This document shows positions 5,252-64,000 of a stretch of DNA of 64,000 nucleotides, piece after piece (position 1 is the stretch's first letter; each line of letters begins with the position of its first letter). Origin of the DNA: an uncultured Gemmatimonadales bacterium. Lineage in GTDB: Bacteria > Gemmatimonadota > Gemmatimonadetes > Gemmatimonadales > Gemmatimonadaceae. Both the position numbers and the translations under genes were made by a program. The stretch lies in NCBI GenBank assembly GCA_963707505.1, contig CAVPQB010000004.1:736001-800000 (forward strand), read 5' to 3'. Below the pieces are notes generated by a model. That model made no database searches. It saw only the letters and a program-made list of their open reading frames with translations, and was not told the origin of the DNA.

Positions 5252-8200
5252 ATGCCTGTATCGCGATGGCTTCGGTTCATCACTCTTGGTGCTGCCAGTG
5301 TTGCGGCGCCGCTCTCTGCCCAGGCTCCAGCTGCACGGGCGTCATCTGCTCCGGCGCTTGACTCGGCGACTCTCGCCGGCTTCAGGTGGCGAAACGTCGG
5401 GCCGGCGAACATCGGCGGCCGCGTCACGAGCATCGCGGGCATTCCGTCTCCGTCGCGCACGTTCTTTGTGGCGACCGCCGCGAGCGGCATCTGGAAGACC
5501 ACTAACGCCGGCACGACCTTCGAGCCGGTGTTCGAGCACGAGCCAGTCAGCTCGATGGGTGAGATCGCGATAGCTCCATCGGATACGAACGTCATCTACG
5601 CCGGCACTGGCGAGGAAGACTCGCGAAATTCGATCTCGCCTGGCGGCGGCATGTACAAGAGCACGGACGGCGGCCACAAGTGGACGTTCATCGGACTCAA
5701 GGAAACGCAGCAGATCGGACGCATAGTTGTAAGTCCCAAGGATCCGAACACCGTTTACGTCGCGGCACTCGGGCACGCGTGGGGGCCGAACAAGGAACGC
5801 GGTCTGTACAAGACCACTGATGGTGGTACGAGCTGGAAGCTGATCAAGTTCATCAGTGACAAGGCTGGTTTTGTCGATGTGGCGATGGACCCGTCCGATC
5901 CGAACACGTTGTACGCAGCGAGCTGGGAGCGCGTGCGTGGCCCGTACTTCCTCAAGAGCGGCGGCCCTGGTAGCGCGCTCTGGAAGACGACCGATGCCGG
6001 CGCAACGTGGGCGGAGATCAAGGGCGGCGGCTTTCCGGCGACGATGAAGGGTCGCATCGGGCTCGCCATCGCGCCGAGCAATTCGAAGATCGTCTATGCA
6101 ATAGTCGAAGCGGATTCGCTGCCGAATCCGAAAAAGAGCACCAGCACCAAGGGACGGCAGAAGCTTGAGAGCGGATTGTATCGTTCCGAGGACGCTGGCG
6201 CCACGTGGACGAAGATGAACGATCACGACGAGCGGCCGTTCTACTACTCGCAGGTGCGAGTCGATCCCAAGGATCCGAATCGTGTGTACTGGTCATCGAC
6301 GCCCGTCAATTTCTCTGACGATGGCGGCAAGACTGTTCGCAATGCGACCATCGGCATTCACGTCGATCACCACGCAATGTGGATCGATCCGAATGATCCT
6401 GCGCACTTCATCGTCGGCGACGACGGCGGAATCTCGCAGACGTGGGACAGAGGCGGCAACTTCGACTTCATCAACACGATCGCGATCGGCCAGTTCTACG
6501 CCGTGAGCTACGACATGGCGATTCCATACCGCGTCTGCGGGGGATTGCAGGACAACGGCTCGATGTGCGGTCCGAGCCGCCGCGCCCGCGGCAACATCAC
6601 CAACGCGATGTGGTTTGTGACGGGAGGCGGTGACGGCTTTTACACCGCTCAGGATCAGACGAATCCAGATATCATCTACGCCGAGTCGCAGGGTGGGGCA
6701 GTGGGACGCCTGAACTACGCGACCGGTGAGCGTTCACAGATTCGCAAGCCGTCGTACCGCGAGCGCTATCAGCAATTCGAGGATTCGCTGGTCATCGCGC
6801 GCGGCGATACCACGCAGCCTGAAACGCCATCGATGAAGAAGACGCTCGCAGAGATACGAGCGCGCCAGCGCGCAGACTCGGTAATCTCCGACATGCGCTT
6901 CAACTGGGAGTCTCCGTACTTCCTGTCGGCGCACGCGCCGCAGACGCTCTACATGGGCGGCAATCGTGTTCTCAAGTCGCTCGATCGCGGCGACCACATG
7001 TTTCCGATCTCGCCGGATCTCTCCACGCAGGATACGGCGAAGATCAACATCAGCATGCACACCACCGGCGGTATCACGCTGGACGCGACCGGGGCCGAGA
7101 CGTATGGAACGATCACAACGCTCGCCGAGTCGCCGATCCGTGCAGGATTACTGTATGCGGGCACTGACGACGGTAATGTCTGGCTGACTCGCAACGACGG
7201 AGCAACGTGGGAAAATCTCACGACGCATTTCTCCGGCGTCCCGAAGAACACCGATGTGAGTCGCATCGAGCCGTCTGCATTCGACTCTGCGACGTTCTAC
7301 GTAACGTTCGACAATCACGAGCGGAACGATTTCACGCCGTACGTATTCGTGACGACCGATTTCGGCAAGACGTTCCGCTCGATCGCGAACAACATTCCGA
7401 CCGACGCGCCGAACTGGGTGCGTGTCATTCGCGAGGATCCCGTCAACCGGGATCTGCTGTTCCTCGGTACAGATGTCGCGGCGTATGTGTCCATGGATCG
7501 CGGCGCAAACTGGCAGCGCTTCATGACGGGTCTTCCGACCGTGCCGGTGTACGACCTAAAGATTCAGCCGCGCGATCACGAGTTGATAGCGGGCACGCAC
7601 GGACGCAGCATCTGGATCGTGGACATCGCGCCACTCGAGCAGATGAAGGATGCCGGTGCGCGCGGCAGCGGCACCCACTTCTTCACGCCGTCCACCGCGT
7701 TCGAGTACGGCGAGTCGCCTGTGGAGGGTCAGGAGATTGGGCAGAAGGCCTTCCAGGGCACCAGTGTGCCGTACGGCGCACAGTTCACATATCGTCTTGC
7801 GTCGGGTGTGCGTGACTCGGTCAAGTTCACGGTTACGAGCGCGAGTGGAGATACGGTTGCGATCGTGAACGGACCACGGGCGTCTGGTGCGGCGATCGAG
7901 CGTGCGTACTGGGACTTCCGCACCAGGACCAAGCCGGAGCCGCTGTCGCCTTCGCAGCATCGCGATAGCGTCGAGTACATGCACCGCGTCGACTTCGTGA
8001 TCGACTCGATGACGAAGGCTGGTGGCAACGCTGCCGAGCTGACGCGCATCAAGGCGCAGCTCGTGAGCGGCGGTGGCGGCTTTGGTGGCTTTGGCCGTGG
8101 TGGTGCGCCGAGCGAGCGGTTCGTCGCCCGTCCGGCTGAGTCACCGGCGCCGCGGGCGCCAGGTGCCGCAGGTGCCGCAGGTGCCGCAGGTGCCGCAGGC

Positions 8201-48501: not shown

Positions 48502-48999
48502 ATGCCAATTTTTATCGCCTTGTTCGCCTCCGCCACGATGGCCGTCGCGAGCCCGTCTCCGGTGCAGCACCCGGTGATGCATAGTGTGACAGTTACCGTC
48601 GCCGATACGGAGCCAGCCTGGCGGTCGGTGCGCGCCGATACGATCGGCGATCTGCTCTTCACCACCGAGACGCTGAACGGTCGCGTGCGCTTTGTTGCGG
48701 GTGGCCGCACTGGTGCCACCGCTGTCACGACCTCGGATTTCACTCCGGATTCCGTTCGGACCTGGACCGCTTCTGCAGCCGAGCTCGCGTCCAGCGCGAC
48801 ACCGAAGATGGGCGAGATGCGCGGACTCGGCCTCGCCCTCACTCTCAACGTCACCACGACGACGACCGGGGAGACGGCATTCGGATTCTACGTCGGCGAC
48901 GCGGTGAGCGATCAGCAGGTCGCGTTGGCGCTGACAAAGGACAAGGTCATGCAGCTGACGTCCGACGTGAACAAGGCACTGGATGCGATAGGGCACTGA
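48502..48999 (+). CDS. Hypothetical exported protein
   Basis: Signal-peptide-like N-terminus. Ends just before a strong terminator. Confidence 0.6.
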   Translation: MPIFIALFASATMAVASPSPVQHPVMHSVTVTVADTEPAWRSVRADTIGDLLFTTETLNGRVRFVAGGRTGATAVTTSDFTPDSVRTWTASAAELASSATPKMGEMRGLGLALTLNVTTTTTGETAFGFYVGDAVSDQQVALALTKDKVMQLTSDVNKALDAIGH

Positions 49000-49078: not shown

Positions 49079-49978
49079 TTACTGCTTTGTCACCTTGTGC
49101 GTGTCGAGGTTGAGCATGTACGCGGTGCCGTTGATGGTCATCGGTACGTTCACCGTTCCGTTGAACGTAACCACCACCTGTCGTGTCGCTGTGTGCGTCG
49201 TGGTGTCACTCGCTTCGCGAGTCCGTACCACTGTGTAGTTCTTCACGAACGTGCCGCTCAGCGGATACGGGTTGATGTCGCGCGGCTGCCGGAACTTGAT
49301 GGCGGACGCCGTATCGGTCGATGTGAAGGTGTAGTCCTTCGTTATCTGGCCCGTGCGAGTGGAGTGAACTGAACCGGTGCCGCTGCCATTCCAGGTGTGC
49401 ACTGTATCGCCGAGGAGCGTGGAGACGGTCCGGTTGTGCAACCGGTACGTGGTGTCGGAGAATGTGTTCTGGTTTGCGCTGAAGCTCGTCTGACCAGTGT
49501 CGGCAACGATGAAGTTTATCGACGCCGTCGTGGACTTGCTAAACGCAGACTGCGTAGTGCCGTTCGCATCGAACAATGCGTAGCTGACGGTATACGTCTG
49601 CGTACCGCGCTTCATCGGTGGGCAGTTGAATCGTCCGGTCGCAGCATTGAACACGCACGACGGACTGATCCATGCGGCCGATCCGCCTGACGGTGGCGTG
49701 TTGACTATCGGAGAAACGCCCGCGCCCACGATCGTTGCGCCGGGACTGTTCACGGAGAACGAAGCGCCAGATCCGGTTAGATCAGCGCCGGACATGAATG
49801 AATAATCAGTCGCGACATCCTCGCCGGCACTCGGCGCCAGGTCCGGCGTTACCGACGCCTCGAACGCAGCTGAGGATGATGGCGACGATGCGCCCGGTGC
49901 AGTCGAGTCGCTGCATGCTACGCCCGCGGCTACCACTAGCGCCGCTGTCAGCGTTGATAACAGGGAACGTGTTTTCAT
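49079..49978 (-). CDS. Hypothetical Thr/Ser-rich lipoprotein
   Basis: MKTRSLL...GVAC lipobox and a beta-rich body. GGAG upstream. Confidence 0.75.
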   Translation of the reverse strand: MKTRSLLSTLTAALVVAAGVACSDSTAPGASSPSSSAAFEASVTPDLAPSAGEDVATDYSFMSGADLTGSGASFSVNSPGATIVGAGVSPIVNTPPSGGSAAWISPSCVFNAATGRFNCPPMKRGTQTYTVSYALFDANGTTQSAFSKSTTASINFIVADTGQTSFSANQNTFSDTTYRLHNRTVSTLLGDTVHTWNGSGTGSVHSTRTGQITKDYTFTSTDTASAIKFRQPRDINPYPLSGTFVKNYTVVRTREASDTTTHTATRQVVVTFNGTVNVPMTINGTAYMLNLDTHKVTKQ

Positions 49979-51437: not shown

Positions 51438-51492
51438 GACCCGAAAGCTAACTCCGGCAGAGATGCACGGTGTTAGCCATGCTGTCCGTTCG

Positions 51493-53071
<1,579 letters not shown>

Positions 53072-53102: not shown

Positions 53103-55376
<2,274 letters not shown>

Positions 55377-55562
55377 CTAAGGCTTCCAAAGATCGCACTC
55401 CGAGGGGTCGTGGCGCCACCCTGCGGCCATTTTGCGCGCGGTGACGGTGCCAGGGCGCCCTGGGATGAGGGAGACGGCTCCGCGGCGCGCAGCGAGCGGC
55501 GGCGCGGTGTAGCGTTTTGCCCACTGGTGCGTAATACGTGTGCTGGTATACGATTAGACCGG

Positions 55563-55922
55563 ATGCTCAGACCGACCCAAAGCGTACGACGTAATAGCGG
55601 GCGGTGGGGATGGCGGCTGGCAGCTGTGCTGGCCATCCTTGCCCAATGCTGGATAGCGGTGGCTCCTCTTTCAGAGAGCCGCGGCTTTGGGCTATCCGCG
55701 CACGTCGAGGCGACGGGAAACCATCGGGGTCATTTCACGCACGACGCTGCGTCGTGCGCCGCGTGCTCCGTGCTGTCGCTCCACGCATTGAGCTCGCATC
55801 CGGCGGCGGTCCCGGTGCCGCCCGGCCAGCCGGTCTTCCGGGCGGTCACTACCGCTGAAGCGTGGATCGAAGCAGTTCAGCTTAAATCGGTCCAGCCCAG
55901 GGCGCCTCCCGCGTCTGTGTAG
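55563..55922 (+). CDS. DUF2946/CruR-like leader protein 1 (CxxC + RAPP), putative metal-sensing arrest peptide
   Basis: 119 aa: basic then hydrophobic N-terminus, HVEATGNH..H..HDAASCAAC, Pro-rich linker, RAPPASV-stop. Ends 74 nt before the TolC-family gene. Confidence 0.75.
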   Translation: MLRPTQSVRRNSGRWGWRLAAVLAILAQCWIAVAPLSESRGFGLSAHVEATGNHRGHFTHDAASCAACSVLSLHALSSHPAAVPVPPGQPVFRAVTTAEAWIEAVQLKSVQPRAPPASV

Positions 55923-55996
55923 TCCACGTCCGGTAGTCCGCGTGCATTTCCGCACGCGTGTGCATGCGGGCGTGTCAACACAACGAGAGAGATCGC

Positions 55997-57268
55997 ATGT
56001 CCCTAGCACGCTGGACTGCGCTGCTCGCACTCTGTGCAAGCAGCGCGTCTGCCCAACAACGTCCCGATACCCTGCTACTGACTCGCGCGGCCGCGATCCA
56101 GCTGGCGCTGGAGCACAATCCGCAGCTCGACGTCGCGCGGGAGCAGATCGCCGAGTTTCGCGCAGCCAGGGTTCAGGCTGTCGCAATCCCCGATCCGGCA
56201 GTCACGGCTTCGCTGGATGGGCAGCCAGGCCTGTTCCGCTCTTCAGCCACAGGCCAGAAGAATGTCGGTGCAACGCTGCAGGTTCCCTTTCCTGACAAGT
56301 TCCGTTTGCGCGGTAACGTTGCCGGCGCCGACATACGCAACGCGCAGGCGAACTATACGGCGCTTCAGCGTCAGATCGCTGCGCAGACCGCCGAGCAATA
56401 CGATTCGCTGTTGGTGGCGCTGCGACATCGAACGGATTTTACCGAGGCACAGACGCTCGCGAACGACTTTCTCAAGCGCACCCAGGCGCGGTTCGACGCA
56501 GGAACGGCGCCGCGACTCGACGTCATCAAGGCGCAGGTGGACGTTGCGGCGGCGACCAACGATTTGATATCGAACGAGCGCGCGATCGCGAACGCCTCAT
56601 CAGGATTGAATCGCTTCATGGGGCGCTCGCTTGGCGCTCCAATTGTCGCGACGGATTCGCTGACGGTGCCGCCGTCGCTTCCATCGGTAGATGTGCTCGA
56701 GCGCGAGGCGTTGAACGCGCGGCCGGAGCTCGCAGGTCTGATGGCGCAGCGCAAGGGAGCACACTCGGCCACGACTCTCGCGCGTGAATTCTGGCTTCCC
56801 GACCTCACCCTCGGCGTTTCGCGCGACGTGTCAGGCAACAGTGGGCCGGGAGTTTTCTCTACCGGCCTCGCATTTCCGCTTCCGTTGCTGTTCTGGCAGC
56901 ACACTAAGGGTGAGGTGAGCCAGTCCCTGCACTTCGAGCGTGAGTTGGCCGCGTCGTACCGCGATCTCGAAGCGGAAGTTGGCCAGGACGTGCGAAACGC
57001 ATACGCGGCAGCGAGCACTTCACTACGGCAGGCGATCTACATACGTGATCAGCTGCTTCCATCCGCACGTGAAGCTTACCGGTCGACAGCGGCGAGCTAC
57101 GCGATCGGCGGATCGTCGGCGTTTGAAGTCATCGACGCGCGCCGCACTCTGCTCGATGCGCAGAGTCAGTATTCCGACGCACTGGCCGCGGCCAACACAT
57201 CCAGATCCGATCTGGAACGCGCGGTAAGTGTGCCACTCGAAACCATCGCTTCCGGACCGAACCAATGA
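55997..57268 (+). CDS. TolC-family outer membrane efflux protein (CzcC-like)
   Basis: Signal peptide, AIQLALEHNPQL, RFDAG..PRLDV and Y..G.SS.FEVIDARR. First gene of the RND operon. Confidence 0.9.
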   Translation: MSLARWTALLALCASSASAQQRPDTLLLTRAAAIQLALEHNPQLDVAREQIAEFRAARVQAVAIPDPAVTASLDGQPGLFRSSATGQKNVGATLQVPFPDKFRLRGNVAGADIRNAQANYTALQRQIAAQTAEQYDSLLVALRHRTDFTEAQTLANDFLKRTQARFDAGTAPRLDVIKAQVDVAAATNDLISNERAIANASSGLNRFMGRSLGAPIVATDSLTVPPSLPSVDVLEREALNARPELAGLMAQRKGAHSATTLAREFWLPDLTLGVSRDVSGNSGPGVFSTGLAFPLPLLFWQHTKGEVSQSLHFERELAASYRDLEAEVGQDVRNAYAAASTSLRQAIYIRDQLLPSAREAYRSTAASYAIGGSSAFEVIDARRTLLDAQSQYSDALAAANTSRSDLERAVSVPLETIASGPNQ

Positions 57269-58413
57269 GCATGAAGTCATTCTGTTTGATTGCTGGCCTC
57301 GTTCTCTTGTCGGCTTGTGGAGGGTCGGATGAATCAGCGAATACGGTGACGCCGGCATCGGCCAAGCCATCCAACCTTACACTCACAGCGGAACAACAGG
57401 CGCGTATTCATCTGGACACCATTGCTCCGTCGAAGTTTTATCCCAGCGTATCGACGACCGGTACCGTCGCGTTCAACGGCGACAGGTCGACGCAGGTGCT
57501 GTCACCGGTTTCGGGTCCCGTGACCAAACTGCTCGTGCAGCCGGGTACTGTAGTCGCGAGCGGCACCGCACTGGCAACGGTTTCGTCTCCCGACTTCGCG
57601 GCAGCCGTAGGAAGCTATCGCAAGGCGGTTGTGACGGCGACCAACCTTCAGCGGATCGCCGACCAGGACGTGCAACTCTTCAAGACCGACGCGCTGTCGC
57701 GTCGGGATCTCGAGCAGGCCCAGACCGACGCCGCGTCTGCGGTCGCTGACAGAGAAGCGGCGCTGGAGCAGATCAGATCCCTTGGCATCGACCCGGCCGT
57801 AATCGCGAACGCGACGAACGGTGGCAGTACTGGAGCAGTGCCGGGTGTAATTCGTGCGCCGATTGCCGGAACGGTCGTCGAGCGACTCATCACACCAGGA
57901 CAGTTGCTCCAGGCAGGGGGAACGCCAGCGTTTACCATCGCGGACCTGTCGACTGTATGGGTGATGGCGAACGTGTTCGAGTCCGATCTCGCGAGCGTGC
58001 ACAAGGGCGAGCACGTGACCGTGACTAGCGCAGTGAGTCCAACGCCGTTCGACGGCACTGTCGACTACGTCGGTGCACTGGTCGATTCTTCCACTCGCGC
58101 GACATCCGTACGCCTTGTGGTGCGCAATCGCGATGATCTGCTGAAGCGAGACATGTACGTCAATGTCGCGATCAGGGGCGATCGCCAGAAGTCGGGAATT
58201 CTTGCACCGGTAGATGCCGTGCTTCGCGACGATCAGAATCTTCCGTTCGTCTTTGTCGCGACCGGCAATTCGCCAAATGTGCAGTACGCGCGGCGCAGCG
58301 TCACACTCGGCGCGCGTATCGGCGATGACTACGAGATACTGTCCGGACTGAATCCCGGTGACCGTGTGGTTGCAGAGGGTGCGTTGTTCCTGCAGTTCGC
58401 GGAGAGCCTGTGA
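57265..58413 (+). CDS. RND periplasmic adaptor subunit (CzcB/CusB-like)
   Basis: LSAC lipobox, biotinyl-lipoyl halves (SPVSG, IRAPIAGTV), IADLSTVWV.ANVFE and GL.PGDRVV..G. Confidence 0.92.
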   Translation: MSMKSFCLIAGLVLLSACGGSDESANTVTPASAKPSNLTLTAEQQARIHLDTIAPSKFYPSVSTTGTVAFNGDRSTQVLSPVSGPVTKLLVQPGTVVASGTALATVSSPDFAAAVGSYRKAVVTATNLQRIADQDVQLFKTDALSRRDLEQAQTDAASAVADREAALEQIRSLGIDPAVIANATNGGSTGAVPGVIRAPIAGTVVERLITPGQLLQAGGTPAFTIADLSTVWVMANVFESDLASVHKGEHVTVTSAVSPTPFDGTVDYVGALVDSSTRATSVRLVVRNRDDLLKRDMYVNVAIRGDRQKSGILAPVDAVLRDDQNLPFVFVATGNSPNVQYARRSVTLGARIGDDYEILSGLNPGDRVVAEGALFLQFAESL

Positions 58414-61400
58414 CCCCTCCCGATTCCAATGGTTCGCCGGACGGGTCCGGCGCAAACCATCCACGGAGTGCGCTTCCACAGATAGAGGAGCCCGGTTTGG
58501 CGGAGGGCGCGGCACAATCGTTTGTGAATCGTGTCGTCGCGGCGTCGCTGGCACAGCCACTGTTGACCGGCATTCTCGCGATTGTGTTGATAGGCGTCGG
58601 TGCGTGGTCGTTTTCCCGCCTTCCTGTGGATGCGTATCCCGATGTTTCGCCGCCGATGGTCGAGATCATATCTCAGTGGCCCGGCCATGCTGCGGAAGAG
58701 GTGGAGCGACTGATAACCGTACCCGTCGAAGCTGGTATGAACGGCACGCCGAACCTGAAGGTCATGCGCTCGGTTTCGTTGTACGGACTGTCCGATGTGA
58801 CGATGACTTTCGAGGATCGGACCGACACGTATTTCGCACGGCAGCAGGTGTTCGAGCGCATACCGGATCTGAGCCTGCCTGACGGTGTGTCGTCGTCCGT
58901 CGCGCCGATGTCGTCGCCATCGGGGCTGGTTTATCGATACGTGGTCCAGAGCCCTGACCGCACGCCGATGCAGCTCAAGAACATTCAGGACTGGATCCTG
59001 GAAAAGCAGTACAAGGCGGTTCCTGGTGTTGCCGACATGTCGTCGCTTGGCGGCCAGACGATGCAGTATCAGGTGCTCATCGATCCCACCAAGCTTGCCG
59101 GCGCCGGACTCAACGTGTCCACGCTGGCGAACGCGCTTGGCAACAACAATGGGAACGCGGGCGGCGGCTTCTACTCTGAGGGCGGGCAGTTCTACTACGT
59201 TCGCGGACTCGGCCGAATCAACACTCTTGAGGACATCGCAAACACCGTAGTCGCCGTGCAGAACGGGACACCGGTGCTGGTGAAGGACGTCGGCTCCGTC
59301 GAGATCGGTTATGCGCCGCGGCTCGGTCAGTTCGGCTTCAACGACCAGAACGACGCCGTGGAAGGCGTGATCCTGATGCGCACGGGCGAGCAAGCGCAGA
59401 CGGTGCTCAAGCGCGTCGAACAGAAAACGAACGAGCTCAACACCACAGTTCTTCCGAAGGATGTGAAGGTCGTCCCATTCTACGATCGCAGCGATCTCAT
59501 ACAGCTCACGACCAAGACGGTGGAGGACAATCTCCTCCGCGGTATCATCCTCGTAGTGGTGATTCTGATCTTCTTCCTGTACGACATCCGCTCGGGGCTC
59601 ATCGTCGCGGTATCGATACCGCTGGCGTTGATGTTCGCGTTCATCTGCCTGGATCTCAAGGGCATTCCGGCGAATCTGCTGTCGATCGGAGCGATCGACT
59701 TCGGAATCCTGGTGGATGGCGCCGTAGTGATGGTCGAAAACATCCACCGGCAACTGGCGCGACGACACGGCACCGCGTATGACATAAAGACGGTGATAAC
59801 GGAAGCCGCCGCGGAAGTGGATCGTCCAATCGTGTACGCGATAGCTGTGATCATTGCAGGTTTCTCGCCGATCTACGTCCTTACTGGACCGTCAGGCAGG
59901 CTGTTCAAGCCGATGGCGGATACCACGATCTTTGCTTTGATAGGATCGTTACTGGTGACCATCACGCTTCTTCCGGTGGTGTGTGCGGTGGTGTTGCGCG
60001 GCGGTGTGAAGGAACGCCGGAACGCGACCTTCGAATGGATCCTCCTGCAATACAGGCGCGGTCTGGAATGGAGTCTCCGGCACGCGAAGCTCGTACTGTG
60101 GGGATCGATTGCGATCGGCGTTGCATGCTTGCTGATTATCACGCGGATCGGTGGCGAGTTCATGCCCAAGCTCGACGAGGGTGCGCTCTGGGTTCGAGCG
60201 ACTATGCCGTACACGATCTCGTTCGAGGAGTCCTCGAAGATCGTCCCGCAGATAAGGGCGATCATCAAGTCGTTCCCCGAAGTCACACTGGTAGCGTCTG
60301 AGCACGGACGTCCGGATGACGGAACCGACGCAACGGGATTCTTCAACGCCGAATTCTACGTTGGGCTCAAGCCGTACGGAGAGTGGCACGGCAAGTATCG
60401 CACAAAGCCGGAGCTGATCGCGGCCATCGATCAGAAGTTGCGCGCCTATCCTGGAATCACGTTCAACTATACCCAGCCGGCGGAAGATGCCGTCGACGAA
60501 GCCGAGACGGGCCTCAAGAGCTCGCTCGACGCGAAGATATTCGGGACCGATCTGAAAGTGCTGCAGGAGCGGGGAACACAGATCAAGAAGGTGCTTGATC
60601 AGGTGCGCGGTATCAATCAGGTTACGCTCGTTCAGGAGCTGGGCCAGCCGGCGCTGACTGTAACCGCGGATCGCGCGAAGATGGCGCGCTACGGTCTCAA
60701 CGTTTCGGATGTGAATGGGCTGATCGAGGCCGCTGTCGGCGGCGCGGCGGCAACGCAGGTCGTGCAGGGAGAGCAGTTATACGACCTGGTTGTGCGGTTG
60801 CAACCGCAGTTCCGTGAGACGGCCGACGAGATCGGCAACATTCTCATCGCGACGCCGAGCGGCGCACAGATCCCGCTTCGCGAGGTAACGACGCTCAAGA
60901 TCGATAACGGCGCGTCGTTCATCTACCGACAGGACAACTCGCGGTACATCGGTCTGCAGTATTCCGTGACCGGGCGCGATCTGGCCGGTGCAGTGGATGA
61001 TGCGCGAGCGCAGGTCGCGCGAAAGGTGAAGCTGCCGCCCGGTTACTCGATAGTCTGGGGTGGCGAGTTCGAAGAGTACACGGCCTCGCGTCGTCAGCTG
61101 CAGATAGTGTTGCCGCTGACGCTCGCGGTGATTTTCATCCTGCTATTCGCGTTGTATCGGAACTTCAAATTTCCATTCATCACCGTCGCCGGTGTGCTCC
61201 TCTCTGCGCCACTCGGCGGACTGGTTGCGTTGTGGATATCCGGGACTCCATTCTCGGTCTCGTCCGGGATCGGCTTTCTCGCGTTATTCGGTGTATCCGT
61301 GCAGACGGCCGTGGTCTACATCTCCTACGCCAACGAGCTGCGGATCGGCGGTCTTGGAATCTCGGAGGCGACGCTGGACGCTGCACTGCTGCGATTGAGA

Positions 61401-61598
61401 CCGATCATGATGACGGCACTCGTTGCGGCGCTGGGACTGCTTCCTGCAGCGTTTTCTACGGGAGTGGGATCTGATTCCCAGCGACCATTCGCGATGGTGA
61501 TCGTGGGCGGCCTCTTTTCGCGTCTTCTGCTGAGTGTGTTCCTGATGCCAGTATTGTACCTGATGGTGTCGCGCGATAACGACGAGCTGCACGTCTAG
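58410..61598 (+). CDS. CzcA/CusA family heavy-metal efflux RND permease
   Basis: LPVDAYPDVS, AEEVERLIT, SIGAIDFGILVDGAVVMVEN, EFMPKLDEG and RLRPIMMTALVA.LGLLP. Confidence 0.95.
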   Translation: MTPPDSNGSPDGSGANHPRSALPQIEEPGLAEGAAQSFVNRVVAASLAQPLLTGILAIVLIGVGAWSFSRLPVDAYPDVSPPMVEIISQWPGHAAEEVERLITVPVEAGMNGTPNLKVMRSVSLYGLSDVTMTFEDRTDTYFARQQVFERIPDLSLPDGVSSSVAPMSSPSGLVYRYVVQSPDRTPMQLKNIQDWILEKQYKAVPGVADMSSLGGQTMQYQVLIDPTKLAGAGLNVSTLANALGNNNGNAGGGFYSEGGQFYYVRGLGRINTLEDIANTVVAVQNGTPVLVKDVGSVEIGYAPRLGQFGFNDQNDAVEGVILMRTGEQAQTVLKRVEQKTNELNTTVLPKDVKVVPFYDRSDLIQLTTKTVEDNLLRGIILVVVILIFFLYDIRSGLIVAVSIPLALMFAFICLDLKGIPANLLSIGAIDFGILVDGAVVMVENIHRQLARRHGTAYDIKTVITEAAAEVDRPIVYAIAVIIAGFSPIYVLTGPSGRLFKPMADTTIFALIGSLLVTITLLPVVCAVVLRGGVKERRNATFEWILLQYRRGLEWSLRHAKLVLWGSIAIGVACLLIITRIGGEFMPKLDEGALWVRATMPYTISFEESSKIVPQIRAIIKSFPEVTLVASEHGRPDDGTDATGFFNAEFYVGLKPYGEWHGKYRTKPELIAAIDQKLRAYPGITFNYTQPAEDAVDEAETGLKSSLDAKIFGTDLKVLQERGTQIKKVLDQVRGINQVTLVQELGQPALTVTADRAKMARYGLNVSDVNGLIEAAVGGAAATQVVQGEQLYDLVVRLQPQFRETADEIGNILIATPSGAQIPLREVTTLKIDNGASFIYRQDNSRYIGLQYSVTGRDLAGAVDDARAQVARKVKLPPGYSIVWGGEFEEYTASRRQLQIVLPLTLAVIFILLFALYRNFKFPFITVAGVLLSAPLGGLVALWISGTPFSVSSGIGFLALFGVSVQTAVVYISYANELRIGGLGISEATLDAALLRLRPIMMTALVAALGLLPAAFSTGVGSDSQRPFAMVIVGGLFSRLLLSVFLMPVLYLMVSRDNDELHV

Positions 61599-61599
61599 G

Positions 61600-61980
61600 G
61601 TGCCGTTTCGGATGATGGCAACTGGTGCAGGCGCGCGCGGGCGGCCGCGGGGACTCAGAGTCTTCGCGCTCGCCTTCGCGTTGCTGCAGTTCGGCCTTCA
61701 GGGGACGTTTGCGGTCAGCGACGGCTACGAAGAGCAGGCCAGTTCGCACGTCGCGCCCGTTCACGCCGAGATACCGGGCAATCACCACCATCGCCTGCAC
61801 GACAGCGATTGTGTCGTCTGTCACGTCCTTGCGACTGGCTCGACGGTGCCCCCGCGCGCAGTTCCAGCGTGGCTCGACGCCGAGCGTGTTTCGGTCGCGC
61901 CTCCGACCGAGATCGGTGCACGTCCCTACGCCCTCGTTGCCGGCTCCCGGCTCGCTCGCGCACCGCCGGTGAAAGTGTGA
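61600..61980 (+). CDS. DUF2946/CruR-like leader protein 2 (CxxC + RAPP), putative metal-sensing arrest peptide (start 61600-61615)
   Basis: Basic then hydrophobic N-terminus, HAEIPGNHHHRLHDSDCVVC, Pro-rich linker, RAPPVKV-stop. Ends 86 nt before a TonB-dependent receptor. Confidence 0.78.
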   Translation: MPFRMMATGAGARGRPRGLRVFALAFALLQFGLQGTFAVSDGYEEQASSHVAPVHAEIPGNHHHRLHDSDCVVCHVLATGSTVPPRAVPAWLDAERVSVAPPTEIGARPYALVAGSRLARAPPVKV

Positions 61981-62066: not shown

Positions 62067-64000
62067 ATGTCAAATCAACGCGTTTCAGCGCGCGTGGTGG
62101 CGTGTGCGCTCTCCCTGGCCGCGTGCGTCGCCGCCGTTCCAGCGCACGCTTTCGCACTGTCATCAGTCGCGGAAGTCACCGATGCCGGCATCGGCCCGAT
62201 GGCACGTGGCGATCTCACCGGCACAGTAACCGATAGCGCATCCGGTCAACCGCTTCCCAGTGCCGAGGTGAGCGTGATGCAGGGTGGCCGCATCGTGCTC
62301 ACAGCAAGCACCGATGCTTTCGGCCGGTACATCGCGCACGACCTTCCATCCGGCACGTACACCATCAACGTGCGCCTGATCGGCTTTCGGATTCAATCGC
62401 GTGATGTAGCCGTTGGTCCCTCGGGCGACATTCGCGCAGACTTTCGCTTACCGGTGGTAGCGCTGAGTCTCTCTTCAGTTGCTGTAACCGCTGCGATTCC
62501 GCTCGCAGTCGATACGAGGTCCGGCGATCAACGCTTCAAGCAGGACTCATATCACGGCGCGCCGACCAACACCACATCGCAGATCCTTCAGCAGTCGATT
62601 GCCGGCGCAGCTCGTGCACCGACGGGTGAGGTACACATCCGCGGGCAGCACGCCGAGTACACGTATTATGTCGATGGTGTACCCGTGCCGGCTGGAATAT
62701 CTGGCAGCCTCAACGAGCTGTTCGATCCCAGTATCGTGAACCAGATCGATTTTCAGACAGGTGGCTGGGACGCAGAGTATGGAAACAAGAATGCCGCCGT
62801 TGTGAACGTCCAGACGCGCATTCCTGTCGGCGGATTTCATAGCACCATCTCCGGGTACGGCGGCTCGTTCAACACGAACGGCGAGGGAATCACGGCGAGC
62901 ACGAACAGCGGCCCGTGGGGATTCTTCGTTTCAGGCAGTCGCAAATCCACTGACATGCGACTGGAACCCGTAGTTTTCGATACCGCGCGCGACAAGGTGG
63001 TCAACTTCCACAACCATGGAGAGGATTACTCCGCCTTCGCCAAGGTGCAATACACCCCGAACGCATCCAACGTGTTCGACCTCGACGCGAGCCTCTCGAC
63101 GACGCGTTTCCAGGTGCCCTATGATTCGACCGGTAACGTCGTGCTGGATGACCATCAGCGCGATCGCAACGCGTTCGTGAACCTCGGCTATCGTCACATC
63201 TTCGGCGCTGACACGACCGCCGGAGTCGAAGGCGGTGCGACCACGCAGTCTCGCGTGGCGGAGCTGTTCGTTGGAGGCTTCGTGCGATCCGGTGGGTTGA
63301 TGTACATGCCGGGCGCTGGCGACTCTGCGCAATTCGTGTTCTTTCCAGATACGCTCAACGCGTACAACCTGCGCGAAAATCGCAATTTCACGACGTACGG
63401 CATCAAGGCCGACTACACCGTGCATCCTGCGCGCGAGTTGGAATTCAAGTTCGGAACGCTGAGCCAGTACACGACTGGCCACGAAGATTTCGTCACCACG
63501 ACGAATTCCGGCGCGTCGGGTCCTGCATCCAATTCGAATCTCAAGGGATACGATGTCGGTGGATACGCCCAGACCTCGTACTCTCCAATTGAGCGGTTCG
63601 AGATCAGAGCCGGTGTTCGCTACGACGCGCATAATGCACCATTTGCCGGGACACAGACTCAACTGAGTCCCCGTATTCGACTCAACTTCTTCCCGGACCC
63701 TGGCAACACATTCTACCTGTACTACGGGCGACTCTTCGTTCCGACCAACGTCGAGGATCTCCGCGCGATTACGAGCGTCGCACAGCAGGGAGTCACCGCA
63801 GCACCAACGCTGCCGGAGCGCGACAACTTCTACGAGGCCGGGTACATTCACCGCTTCCCGTTCGGCCTCGTGTCCAAGTTTGCGGGCTACCACAAGCAGA
63901 GTACGCCGGGCATCGATGACAACACGGTCCCAGGCTCAGCTGTCGTCACGTCGGTGAACATTGCGCAGGTACGCATCACTGGACTCGAGACTGTACAGGA
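62067..64000 (+). CDS. TonB-dependent receptor, truncated by the window end
   Basis: Manual translation: signal peptide MSNQRVSARVVACALSLAAC..., carboxypeptidase-regulatory-like domain, plug VHIRGQHAEYTYYVDGVP, GGWDAEYG and barrel strands GVRYD/LSPR. The start and the window end are in the same frame. Confidence 0.9.
   Translation, partial: MSNQRVSARVVACALSLAACVAAVPAHAFALSSVAEVTDAGIGPMARGDLTGTVTDSASGQPLPSAEVSVMQGGRIVLTASTDAFGRYIAHDLPSGTYTINVRLIGFRIQSRDVAVGPSGDIRADFRLPVVALSLSSVAVTAAIPLAVDTRSGDQRFKQDSYHGAPTNTTSQILQQSIAGAARAPTGEVHIRGQHAEYTYYVDGVPVPAGISGSLNELFDPSIVNQIDFQTGGWDAEYGNKNAAVVNVQTRIPVGGFHSTISGYGGSFNTNGEGITASTNSGPWGFFVSGSRKSTDMRLEPVVFDTARDKVVNFHNHGEDYSAFAKVQYTPNASNVFDLDASLSTTRFQVPYDSTGNVVLDDHQRDRNAFVNLGYRHIFGADTTAGVEGGATTQSRVAELFVGGFVRSGGLMYMPGAGDSAQFVFFPDTLNAYNLRENRNFTTYGIKADYTVHPARELEFKFGTLSQYTTGHEDFVTTTNSGASGPASNSNLKGYDVGGYAQTSYSPIERFEIRAGVRYDAHNAPFAGTQTQLSPRIRLNFFPDPGNTFYLYYGRLFVPTNVEDLRAITSVAQQGVTAAPTLPERDNFYEAGYIHRFPFGLVSKFAGYHKQSTPGIDDNTVPGSAVVTSVNIAQVRITGLETVQ

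Follow-up and report, generated by a model that had tools for sequence, protein, structure and literature searches.

In the window, that is, the whole stretch of 64,000 nucleotides that was analysed, a small gene (leader 1) lies in front of three efflux genes, and a second small gene (leader 2) follows them, in front of a TonB-dependent receptor gene. The features are as follows.

55549..55554 (+), -10-like hexamer TACGAT, 8 nt upstream of the leader 1 AUG, predicted near-leaderless promoter (conservation)
55563..55922 (+), leader 1 ORF, 119 aa, CutF/CruR-like RAPP leader (translation, motifs, selection, alignment)
55563..55679 (+), predicted Sec signal or anchor of leader 1, basic n-region and hydrophobic residues 19-37 (hydropathy, AlphaFold helix, alignment)
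55701..55766 (+), His/Cys cluster H47-x-E49...H54, H57, H60-x4-C65xxC68, predicted metal site (invariance, dN/dS)
55767..55898 (+), 44-residue spacer, free in sequence and fixed in length (dN/dS 0.40, homolog lengths)
55899..55910 (+), RAPP arrest motif, its codons doubling as 5' arm of the predicted hairpin (R, P, P invariant, 37 sequences)
55899..56003 (+), predicted long hairpin with a GC-rich stem-loop as its cap, in which the RAPP-to-stop codons pair with the intergenic region (74 nt) on its SD side (folding, covariation)
55985..55991 (+), SD-like GAGAGAG of the outer membrane factor (OMF) gene (sequence; GAG invariant in 13 aligned sequences)
55997..57268 (+), OMF, CzcC/TolC-like (PF02321 E 1.4e-48)
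57265..58413 (+), periplasmic adaptor, CzcB/ZneB-like, HlyD-type MFP (PF16576 E 9.6e-45; TIGR01730 above cut-off)
58410..61598 (+), heavy-metal RND pump, ZneA/CzcA-like (TIGR00914 912 bits against a cut-off of 701)
61612..61980 (+), leader 2, a second CxxC-45-RAPP leader (PF11162 31.3 bits, above cut-off)
62067..64000 (+), TonB-dependent receptor, 803 aa, continuing beyond the window end (sequence matches)

The 119-aa protein ending in RAPPASV* that a preliminary description had quoted is the translation of 55563-55922 (+), and its placement at the head of a CzcCBA-like operon was borne out by the OMF (PF02321), MFP (PF16576) and RND (TIGR00914) genes downstream. Leader 1 consists, in order, of a basic N-terminus, a hydrophobic stretch, H47/H54/H57/H60, C65-x-x-C68, 44 residues, R113-A-P-P116, ASV and the stop codon; C68 is separated from R113 by exactly 44 residues, and the R113 codon is AGG at 55899-55901. 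The Kyte-Doolittle maximum was 2.06 at residue 19 (19-residue window), and signal cleavage after S39, judged by eye, is possible. The AlphaFold model contained only helices 12-39 and 66-77 (pTM 0.34), and a folded chaperone domain was rejected because none is predicted in this low-confidence model.

The gene upstream of leader 1 is a divergent one for malic enzyme rather than for a regulator. A TAC-x-AT hexamer ended 8-9 nt upstream of the AUG in all 12 aligned close sequences, and of 25 distant leaders 20 had TAnnnT 4-10 nt ahead of an in-frame start, versus 7 of 550 control ATG/GTG codons. We infer a near-leaderless mRNA with leader 1 as its first gene; such an mRNA would also fix the start codon of leader 1. 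An earlier start at GTG 55347 (191-aa ORF) was set aside, as conservation and the -10 box favour ATG 55563. In the leader 1 region, a strict sigma-70 promoter scan gave zero sites and an intrinsic terminator scan gave none, and over 55300-56200 Rfam had zero matches at E<=1 to any RNA family, riboswitches included.

Two non-coding blocks (55383-55421 and 55510-55545) in the stretch that separates leader 1 from the malic enzyme gene were conserved in 12 aligned sequences (CAAAGATCGCA, GCGCCACCCT, AGCGTTTT, GGTGCGTA). They may be promoter elements of either divergent gene, or a regulator site. In locus L010, the DNA separating the leader promoter from the malic enzyme gene contains a 12-nt unit repeated six times head-to-tail (about 7880-7930). 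Elsewhere in the window, the PEP carboxykinase gene (51473-53071, -) has one extra base near 51903 compared with L001 and is frame-shifted past about codon 390, which is either an assembly error or a recent pseudogene. Two predicted exported proteins, one of 299 aa with a lipoprotein-like start (49079-49978, -) and one of 165 aa (48502-48999, +), each had zero Pfam matches at E<=1.

Judged by its pattern of substitution, leader 1 is a real protein-coding gene under protein-level selection. Pooled dN/dS over 23 distinct close sequences rose from 0.02 in PRAPP and 0.07 in the His/Cys core to 0.11 in the hydrophobic stretch and 0.40 in the spacer, and in the core codons of the same set 39 of 40 third positions were variable versus 9 of 40 second positions. 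H60, C65 and C68, together with the R, P and P of RAPP, were invariant across 37 aligned sequences. The 44-residue distance from the His/Cys cluster to RAPP in the preliminary description is exact here, and in 25 of 27 close loci every motif is intact, the spacer is 44 and the tail 3, the exceptions being L026 (broken frame) and L027 (contig-edge fragment). In L026 the leader frame breaks past the hydrophobic stretch with the efflux genes still downstream, through assembly error or leader loss. The same description had also singled out AGG as the codon of the RAPP arginine. The codon is present, but its significance did not hold up, since AGG is not conserved among homologs: 23 close sequences had AGA 12, AGG 7, CGA 3 and CGC 1, and 25 distant sequences had CGC 14, CGA 8, CGG 2 and AGG 1 (AGA/AGG in 19/23 versus CGN in 24/25). 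A regulatory rare codon was therefore rejected, and from these counts AGG is a clade trait rather than a conserved signal.

The motif combination is not a chance occurrence, because just two of the 28,473 stop-to-stop frames of at least 70 aa in the six-frame translation of the source genome show it, both in one operon: 49 frames had a RAPP-like motif no more than 10 residues from the stop, CxxC was present 30-60 residues earlier in three of these, and only two combined a CxxC distance of 44/45 residues with a tail of 3 residues, both belonging to the efflux operon. When 301 genomes of the phylum were searched with a profile, 31 gave a match, the source genome (G000) and the unpublished G157 among them; 30 loci were returned, of which those of G000 and G157 were left out and two more were same-genus. 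With the two same-genus loci set aside, the motif with a spacer of 43-45 was found in 25 of the remaining 26. Further, 216 homologs at E<=0.001 were found among 1.84 billion representatives, and the 150 listed ones were examined. Both motifs were present in 135 of these 150, the other 15 resembling fragments, other frames or variant motifs, and among these 135 the spacer was 44 residues in 118, 43 in 9, 45 in 7 and 42 in one. Among the matches listed, the 135 with both motifs had a His five positions ahead of CxxC in 133 cases and a RAPP-to-stop distance of 1-9 residues, which was 3 in 88. The named relatives of leader 1 are Gemmatimonadota.

The gene that follows is also largely kept. The preliminary description had proposed an alignment of homologs upstream of czcC-like genes; this alignment showed the motifs and spacer retained, with an OMF directly after the leader in 20 of the 24 distant loci having downstream DNA (Pfam confirmed the OMF for 19 of 26 first-picked downstream ORFs, three of the misses being wrong-frame picks). 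In L038, L045, L051 and L053 a leader-1-like gene is followed not by an OMF but by an exported protein of 415-470 aa that is uncharacterised; the protein behind the L038 leader has a faint beta-barrel porin match (PF07642 E 0.004), the best of the four loci, and L045 shares a strong RAPP-to-SD hairpin.

These data bear on two alternatives. The first is that leader 1 is mainly a trans-acting, CzcI-like periplasmic metal-binding moderator of the pump, with RAPP a leftover or secondary. CzcI does occupy the same position and quenches CzcCBA, and czcI2 is leaderless (PMC10127602); CzcI lies inside the CutF-like network (bioRxiv 10.1101/2022.11.11.516240), leader 2 has a faint match to the CzcI model (E 0.22), and the His/Cys core is strongly conserved. 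However, CzcI lacks a C-terminal proline motif, against a dN/dS of 0.02 for PRAPP here; leader 1 has no match to the CzcI model (NF045614, E<=1); a spacer constant to 1-2 residues would have no role in a free protein; AlphaFold predicts no folded domain; and 4 of 24 distant loci have the leader ahead of genes other than efflux genes. We consider this alternative highly improbable. The second is an arrest leader that monitors a non-metal signal, such as the capacity for Sec export or, via CxxC, the redox state of periplasmic thiols. RAPP peptides were first known as secretion monitors and also occur ahead of thioredoxin/DsbA genes, and a disulfide-folding force has been proposed for CutF (bioRxiv 10.1101/2022.11.11.516240 and 10.1101/2025.02.05.636593), but the invariant His five residues before CxxC, the further His residues, and downstream genes for metal efflux or TonB receptors all point away from such a signal, which is improbable.

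In the pump alignment, ZneA scored 729 bits versus about 560 for CusA, and the pump has the AIDFG motif, as in ZneA. The pump residues D640, E648, D693 and E697 match D602, E610, D654 and D658, which we take to be the zinc-site residues of ZneA in its numbering. The methionine triad M573/M623/M672 of CusA (PMC8092243) is absent from the pump, where V595, N646 and E697 are aligned, and Zn is exported by ZneCAB (PMC8277102). Because of the higher ZneA score, the AIDFG motif and the missing CusA triad, the pump substrate is likely a divalent ion. Reasoning from the pump, the metal sensed by leader 1 would more likely be divalent (Zn, Co, Cd, Ni) than Cu(I), and this is the weakest step of the argument. 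In the source genome (83% complete), the pump is the sole RND above the TIGR00914 cut-off, and no heavy-metal sensor kinase exceeded the TIGR01386 cut-off (best 225 versus 293 bits).

Leader 2 (longest ORF beginning at GTG 61600) was matched in 39 of 151 family genomes; L005 likewise has this cassette behind its RND gene, but L001, L007, L008 and L010 do not. The structure between leader 2 and the TonB receptor gene is strong (z -4.67), and the start codon stays open. An opposite RNA logic for leader 2, in which a stall closes the receptor start (1.4 to 4.0 kcal/mol here), was considered and rejected as not general: among 13 loci led by a TonB-dependent receptor gene, some with doubtful starts, the opening cost was lowered in 4 and raised in 5.

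The intergenic region between leader 1 and the OMF gene is 74 nt here and 69-75 nt across close loci. It folds with the end of leader 1 into the predicted hairpin (z -2.35), of which the RAPP-to-stop codons form the 5' arm and GAGAGAG plus the AUG form the 3' arm. In gap-free columns of a 20-sequence alignment 79% of the cells of this helix were paired, a figure biased in its favour because the tested structure came from the window's own fold, with 0 of 500 shuffles equal and slid controls at 29-53%; two-sided change was seen in 4 of 13 lower-helix pairs of the same alignment. With the ribosome footprint at RAPP blocked, the cost of opening the OMF start fell from 7.6 to 3.0 kcal/mol in the window. 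In the 21 close sequences used for folding, which are related and not independent, the block cut this cost by at least 1 kcal/mol in 19 (mean 8.2 to 3.4) and raised it in none, and pairing of the arm was above the synonymous-recoding mean in 20.

We regard a swap test as the most telling evidence for the hairpin, the tails and intergenic regions being wholly different among the distant loci. Across 24 distant loci, the summed duplex energy of each arm with its own SD region was -342 versus -274 +/- 14 kcal/mol for permuted pairs (p about 1e-5), and an upstream control arm gave p=0.30; a hydrophobicity rule was used to pick the downstream starts, in some cases probably mistakenly. The own pairing ranked in the top tenth for only 11 of 34 loci, and for 1 of 10 where the intergenic region exceeds 90 nt; in L040, L041 and L057 it was worse than the swapped pairing. 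When the folded region was extended by 90 nt upstream and 21 nt downstream, the drop occurred in only 8 of 21 close sequences and several costs rose. The RNAalifold consensus did not recover the long helix, and the best of the registers scanned differed from the folded helix; one close clade (L004, L005, L008, L009, L022, L025) has a shifted pairing register. Taken at the level of sequence, the RAPP-to-stop codons and the SD region do covary.

The preliminary description had proposed a RAPP arrest leader that acts in cis on the operon, and the fixed spacer, the tail length, the gene position and the covarying SD-sequestering hairpin agree with it. That the spacer keeps its length while its sequence drifts counts for this reading, and leader 1 is very probably a cis-acting arrest leader of some kind. 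CutF-type translational activation of the efflux operon is the best explanation and, in our judgement, probably the right one. The published mechanism of CutF, the short intergenic regions and OEP neighbours of its relatives, the arrest site described for RAPP peptides and the arrest of CruR speak for it, as do the lack of a predicted folded domain and of a heavy-metal sensor kinase above cut-off in the source genome. Leader 1 would be translated and the ribosome would stall at RAPP with Pro115 in the P site; metal bound by the His/Cys cluster would prolong the stall; and the stalled ribosome would open the hairpin, free the OMF start and turn the pump on. With Pro115 in the P site, C68 is 47, C65 is 50 and the His residues are 55-68 residues from the peptidyl-transferase centre, so the geometry in the preliminary description was right. 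Its argument that the cluster would lie beyond the ribosome tunnel, at or past the translocon, is already published, since the CutF paper makes the same reckoning for a spacer of 45: with some 30 residues taken up by the tunnel and 17 by the membrane, a motif 45 residues back comes to lie in the periplasmic vestibule of SecY (bioRxiv 10.1101/2022.11.11.516240 = PMC9973294).

Counted against CutF-type activation, besides the weaker folding results and the DUF2946 score below cut-off, is CruR, which shares CxxC-45-RAPP, yet there metal releases the stall, Rho terminates and the signal is unneeded. Leader 1 could likewise sense metal at the cytoplasmic ribosome exit, or control termination as CruR does, with metal altering stalling and Rho access and the hairpin merely a pause site. 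CxxC plus RAPP with a 44/45 spacer is closer to CruR than to CutF, CruR is independent of its signal (PMC9426467), C65 and C68 at 47-50 residues from the P site are borderline for the periplasm, and the wide-window folding was weak (drop in 8/21). On the other hand, the intergenic region is 69-75 nt versus 162 nt for cruR, leader 1 has no clear C-over-G stretch (largest 26 C versus 20 G per 60 nt), the arm and the SD region covary specifically, and switching off with metal would be odd for an exporter. Such control is unlikely. As a more far-reaching proposal, which we advance tentatively, a phylum-wide clade of near-leaderless H-x4-CxxC-44-RAPP leaders might be the first divalent-metal (Zn/Co/Cd/Ni) nascent-peptide sensor. 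It would take the place of a CzcRS-type two-component system at the only heavy-metal RND pump of the cell, and the arrest codons themselves would double as the anti-SD arm.

With respect to class, leader 1 has the CxxC and C-terminal RAPP of DUF2946/CruR and scores below the PF11162 gathering cut-off (12.5 versus 23.7 bits); PF11162 matched 16 of 20 close homologs at E<=1 (best 0.00043) and 18 of 25 distant homologs, two of them above the cut-off. The spacer of 42-45 in 135/135 homologs agrees with the CruR family rule (about 45 residues, constant within 1-2). The rule set for CutF-like proteins (Ozturk et al.) also describes it, with 119 aa (<150), PP at 115-116 (<=15 from the C-terminus) and a same-strand gene 74 nt off (<1000), and a CutF-like stem-loop over the downstream SD is predicted and covarying, weaker in the wide window. 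CxxxC and a multicopper oxidase target, as in CutF proper, were not found, leader 1 having CxxC and an OMF-MFP-RND target. By analogy, leader 1 appears to work like CutF and look like CruR, and it is likely another example of the published CutF/CruR (DUF2946-like) metal-sensing leaders, not a novel type of regulator. A specialist would expect it, because the design is in print, as are the geometry of the spacer and the association with CzcC-type genes. Our search of the accessible literature turned up neither a study of such leaders in Gemmatimonadota nor a zinc-sensing member, though these proteins may be listed in subscription papers or in supplements of the CutF, CruR and EMBO J papers; 'Gemmatimonad' is absent from the main text of bioRxiv 10.1101/2022.11.11.516240, whose supplements might still list such proteins, and CruR and CutF are not mentioned in the accessible part of PMC11672702. 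The two characterised members of the class, CruR and CutF, are both copper sensors with responses of opposite sign. A clade that scores below threshold, is for the most part unannotated and stands in front of a zinc-type efflux pump with a compact covarying RNA switch offers a convenient test of whether nascent chains sense divalent metals too, and of how the direction of the response is determined.

Among known systems, ApdA/ApdP and SecM resemble leader 1, whose export is predicted, as small exported proteins with RAPP at the C-terminus that are encoded ahead of their targets, and differ in that they monitor export, precede sec/yidC genes and have no metal site (PMC10951233). CzcI of Cupriavidus metallidurans is likewise a small exported His/Cys protein right before czcC, with a leaderless czcI2, but it has no C-terminal proline motif and is described as a periplasmic pump quencher (PMC10127602 for the quenching). 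CutF of Rhodobacter capsulatus (cutFOG) is, like leader 1, a small first gene that bears a signal (predicted for leader 1), with a Cys motif about 45 residues ahead of a C-terminal proline motif, a short intergenic region, a stem-loop over the next SD (predicted here) and a downstream gene that detoxifies metal; CutF needs its signal peptide (PMC9973294), and OEP (CusC/CzcC/SilC) genes are the commonest neighbours of CutF-like genes (bioRxiv 10.1101/2022.11.11.516240). In contrast to CutF, leader 1 has CxxC with an invariant upstream His (CxxxC in CutF), RAPP (PPP in CutF), a ZneA/CzcA-like RND pump as target (a multicopper oxidase for CutF) and a predicted SD-pairing arm within the RAPP-to-stop codons, and it belongs to another phylum. 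CruR (DUF2946) of Bordetella pertussis (Bp2923), for which arrest has been demonstrated (PMC12992588), has CxxC-45-RAPP where leader 1 has CxxC-44-RAPP. CruR heads an import operon in which copper releases the stall and Rho terminates, its intergenic region is 162 nt versus 74 nt, and its signal peptide is dispensable, regulation having been seen without it (PMC9426467). Leader 1 thus pairs an exporter target with predicted control at the SD, whereas CruR pairs an importer with Rho termination.
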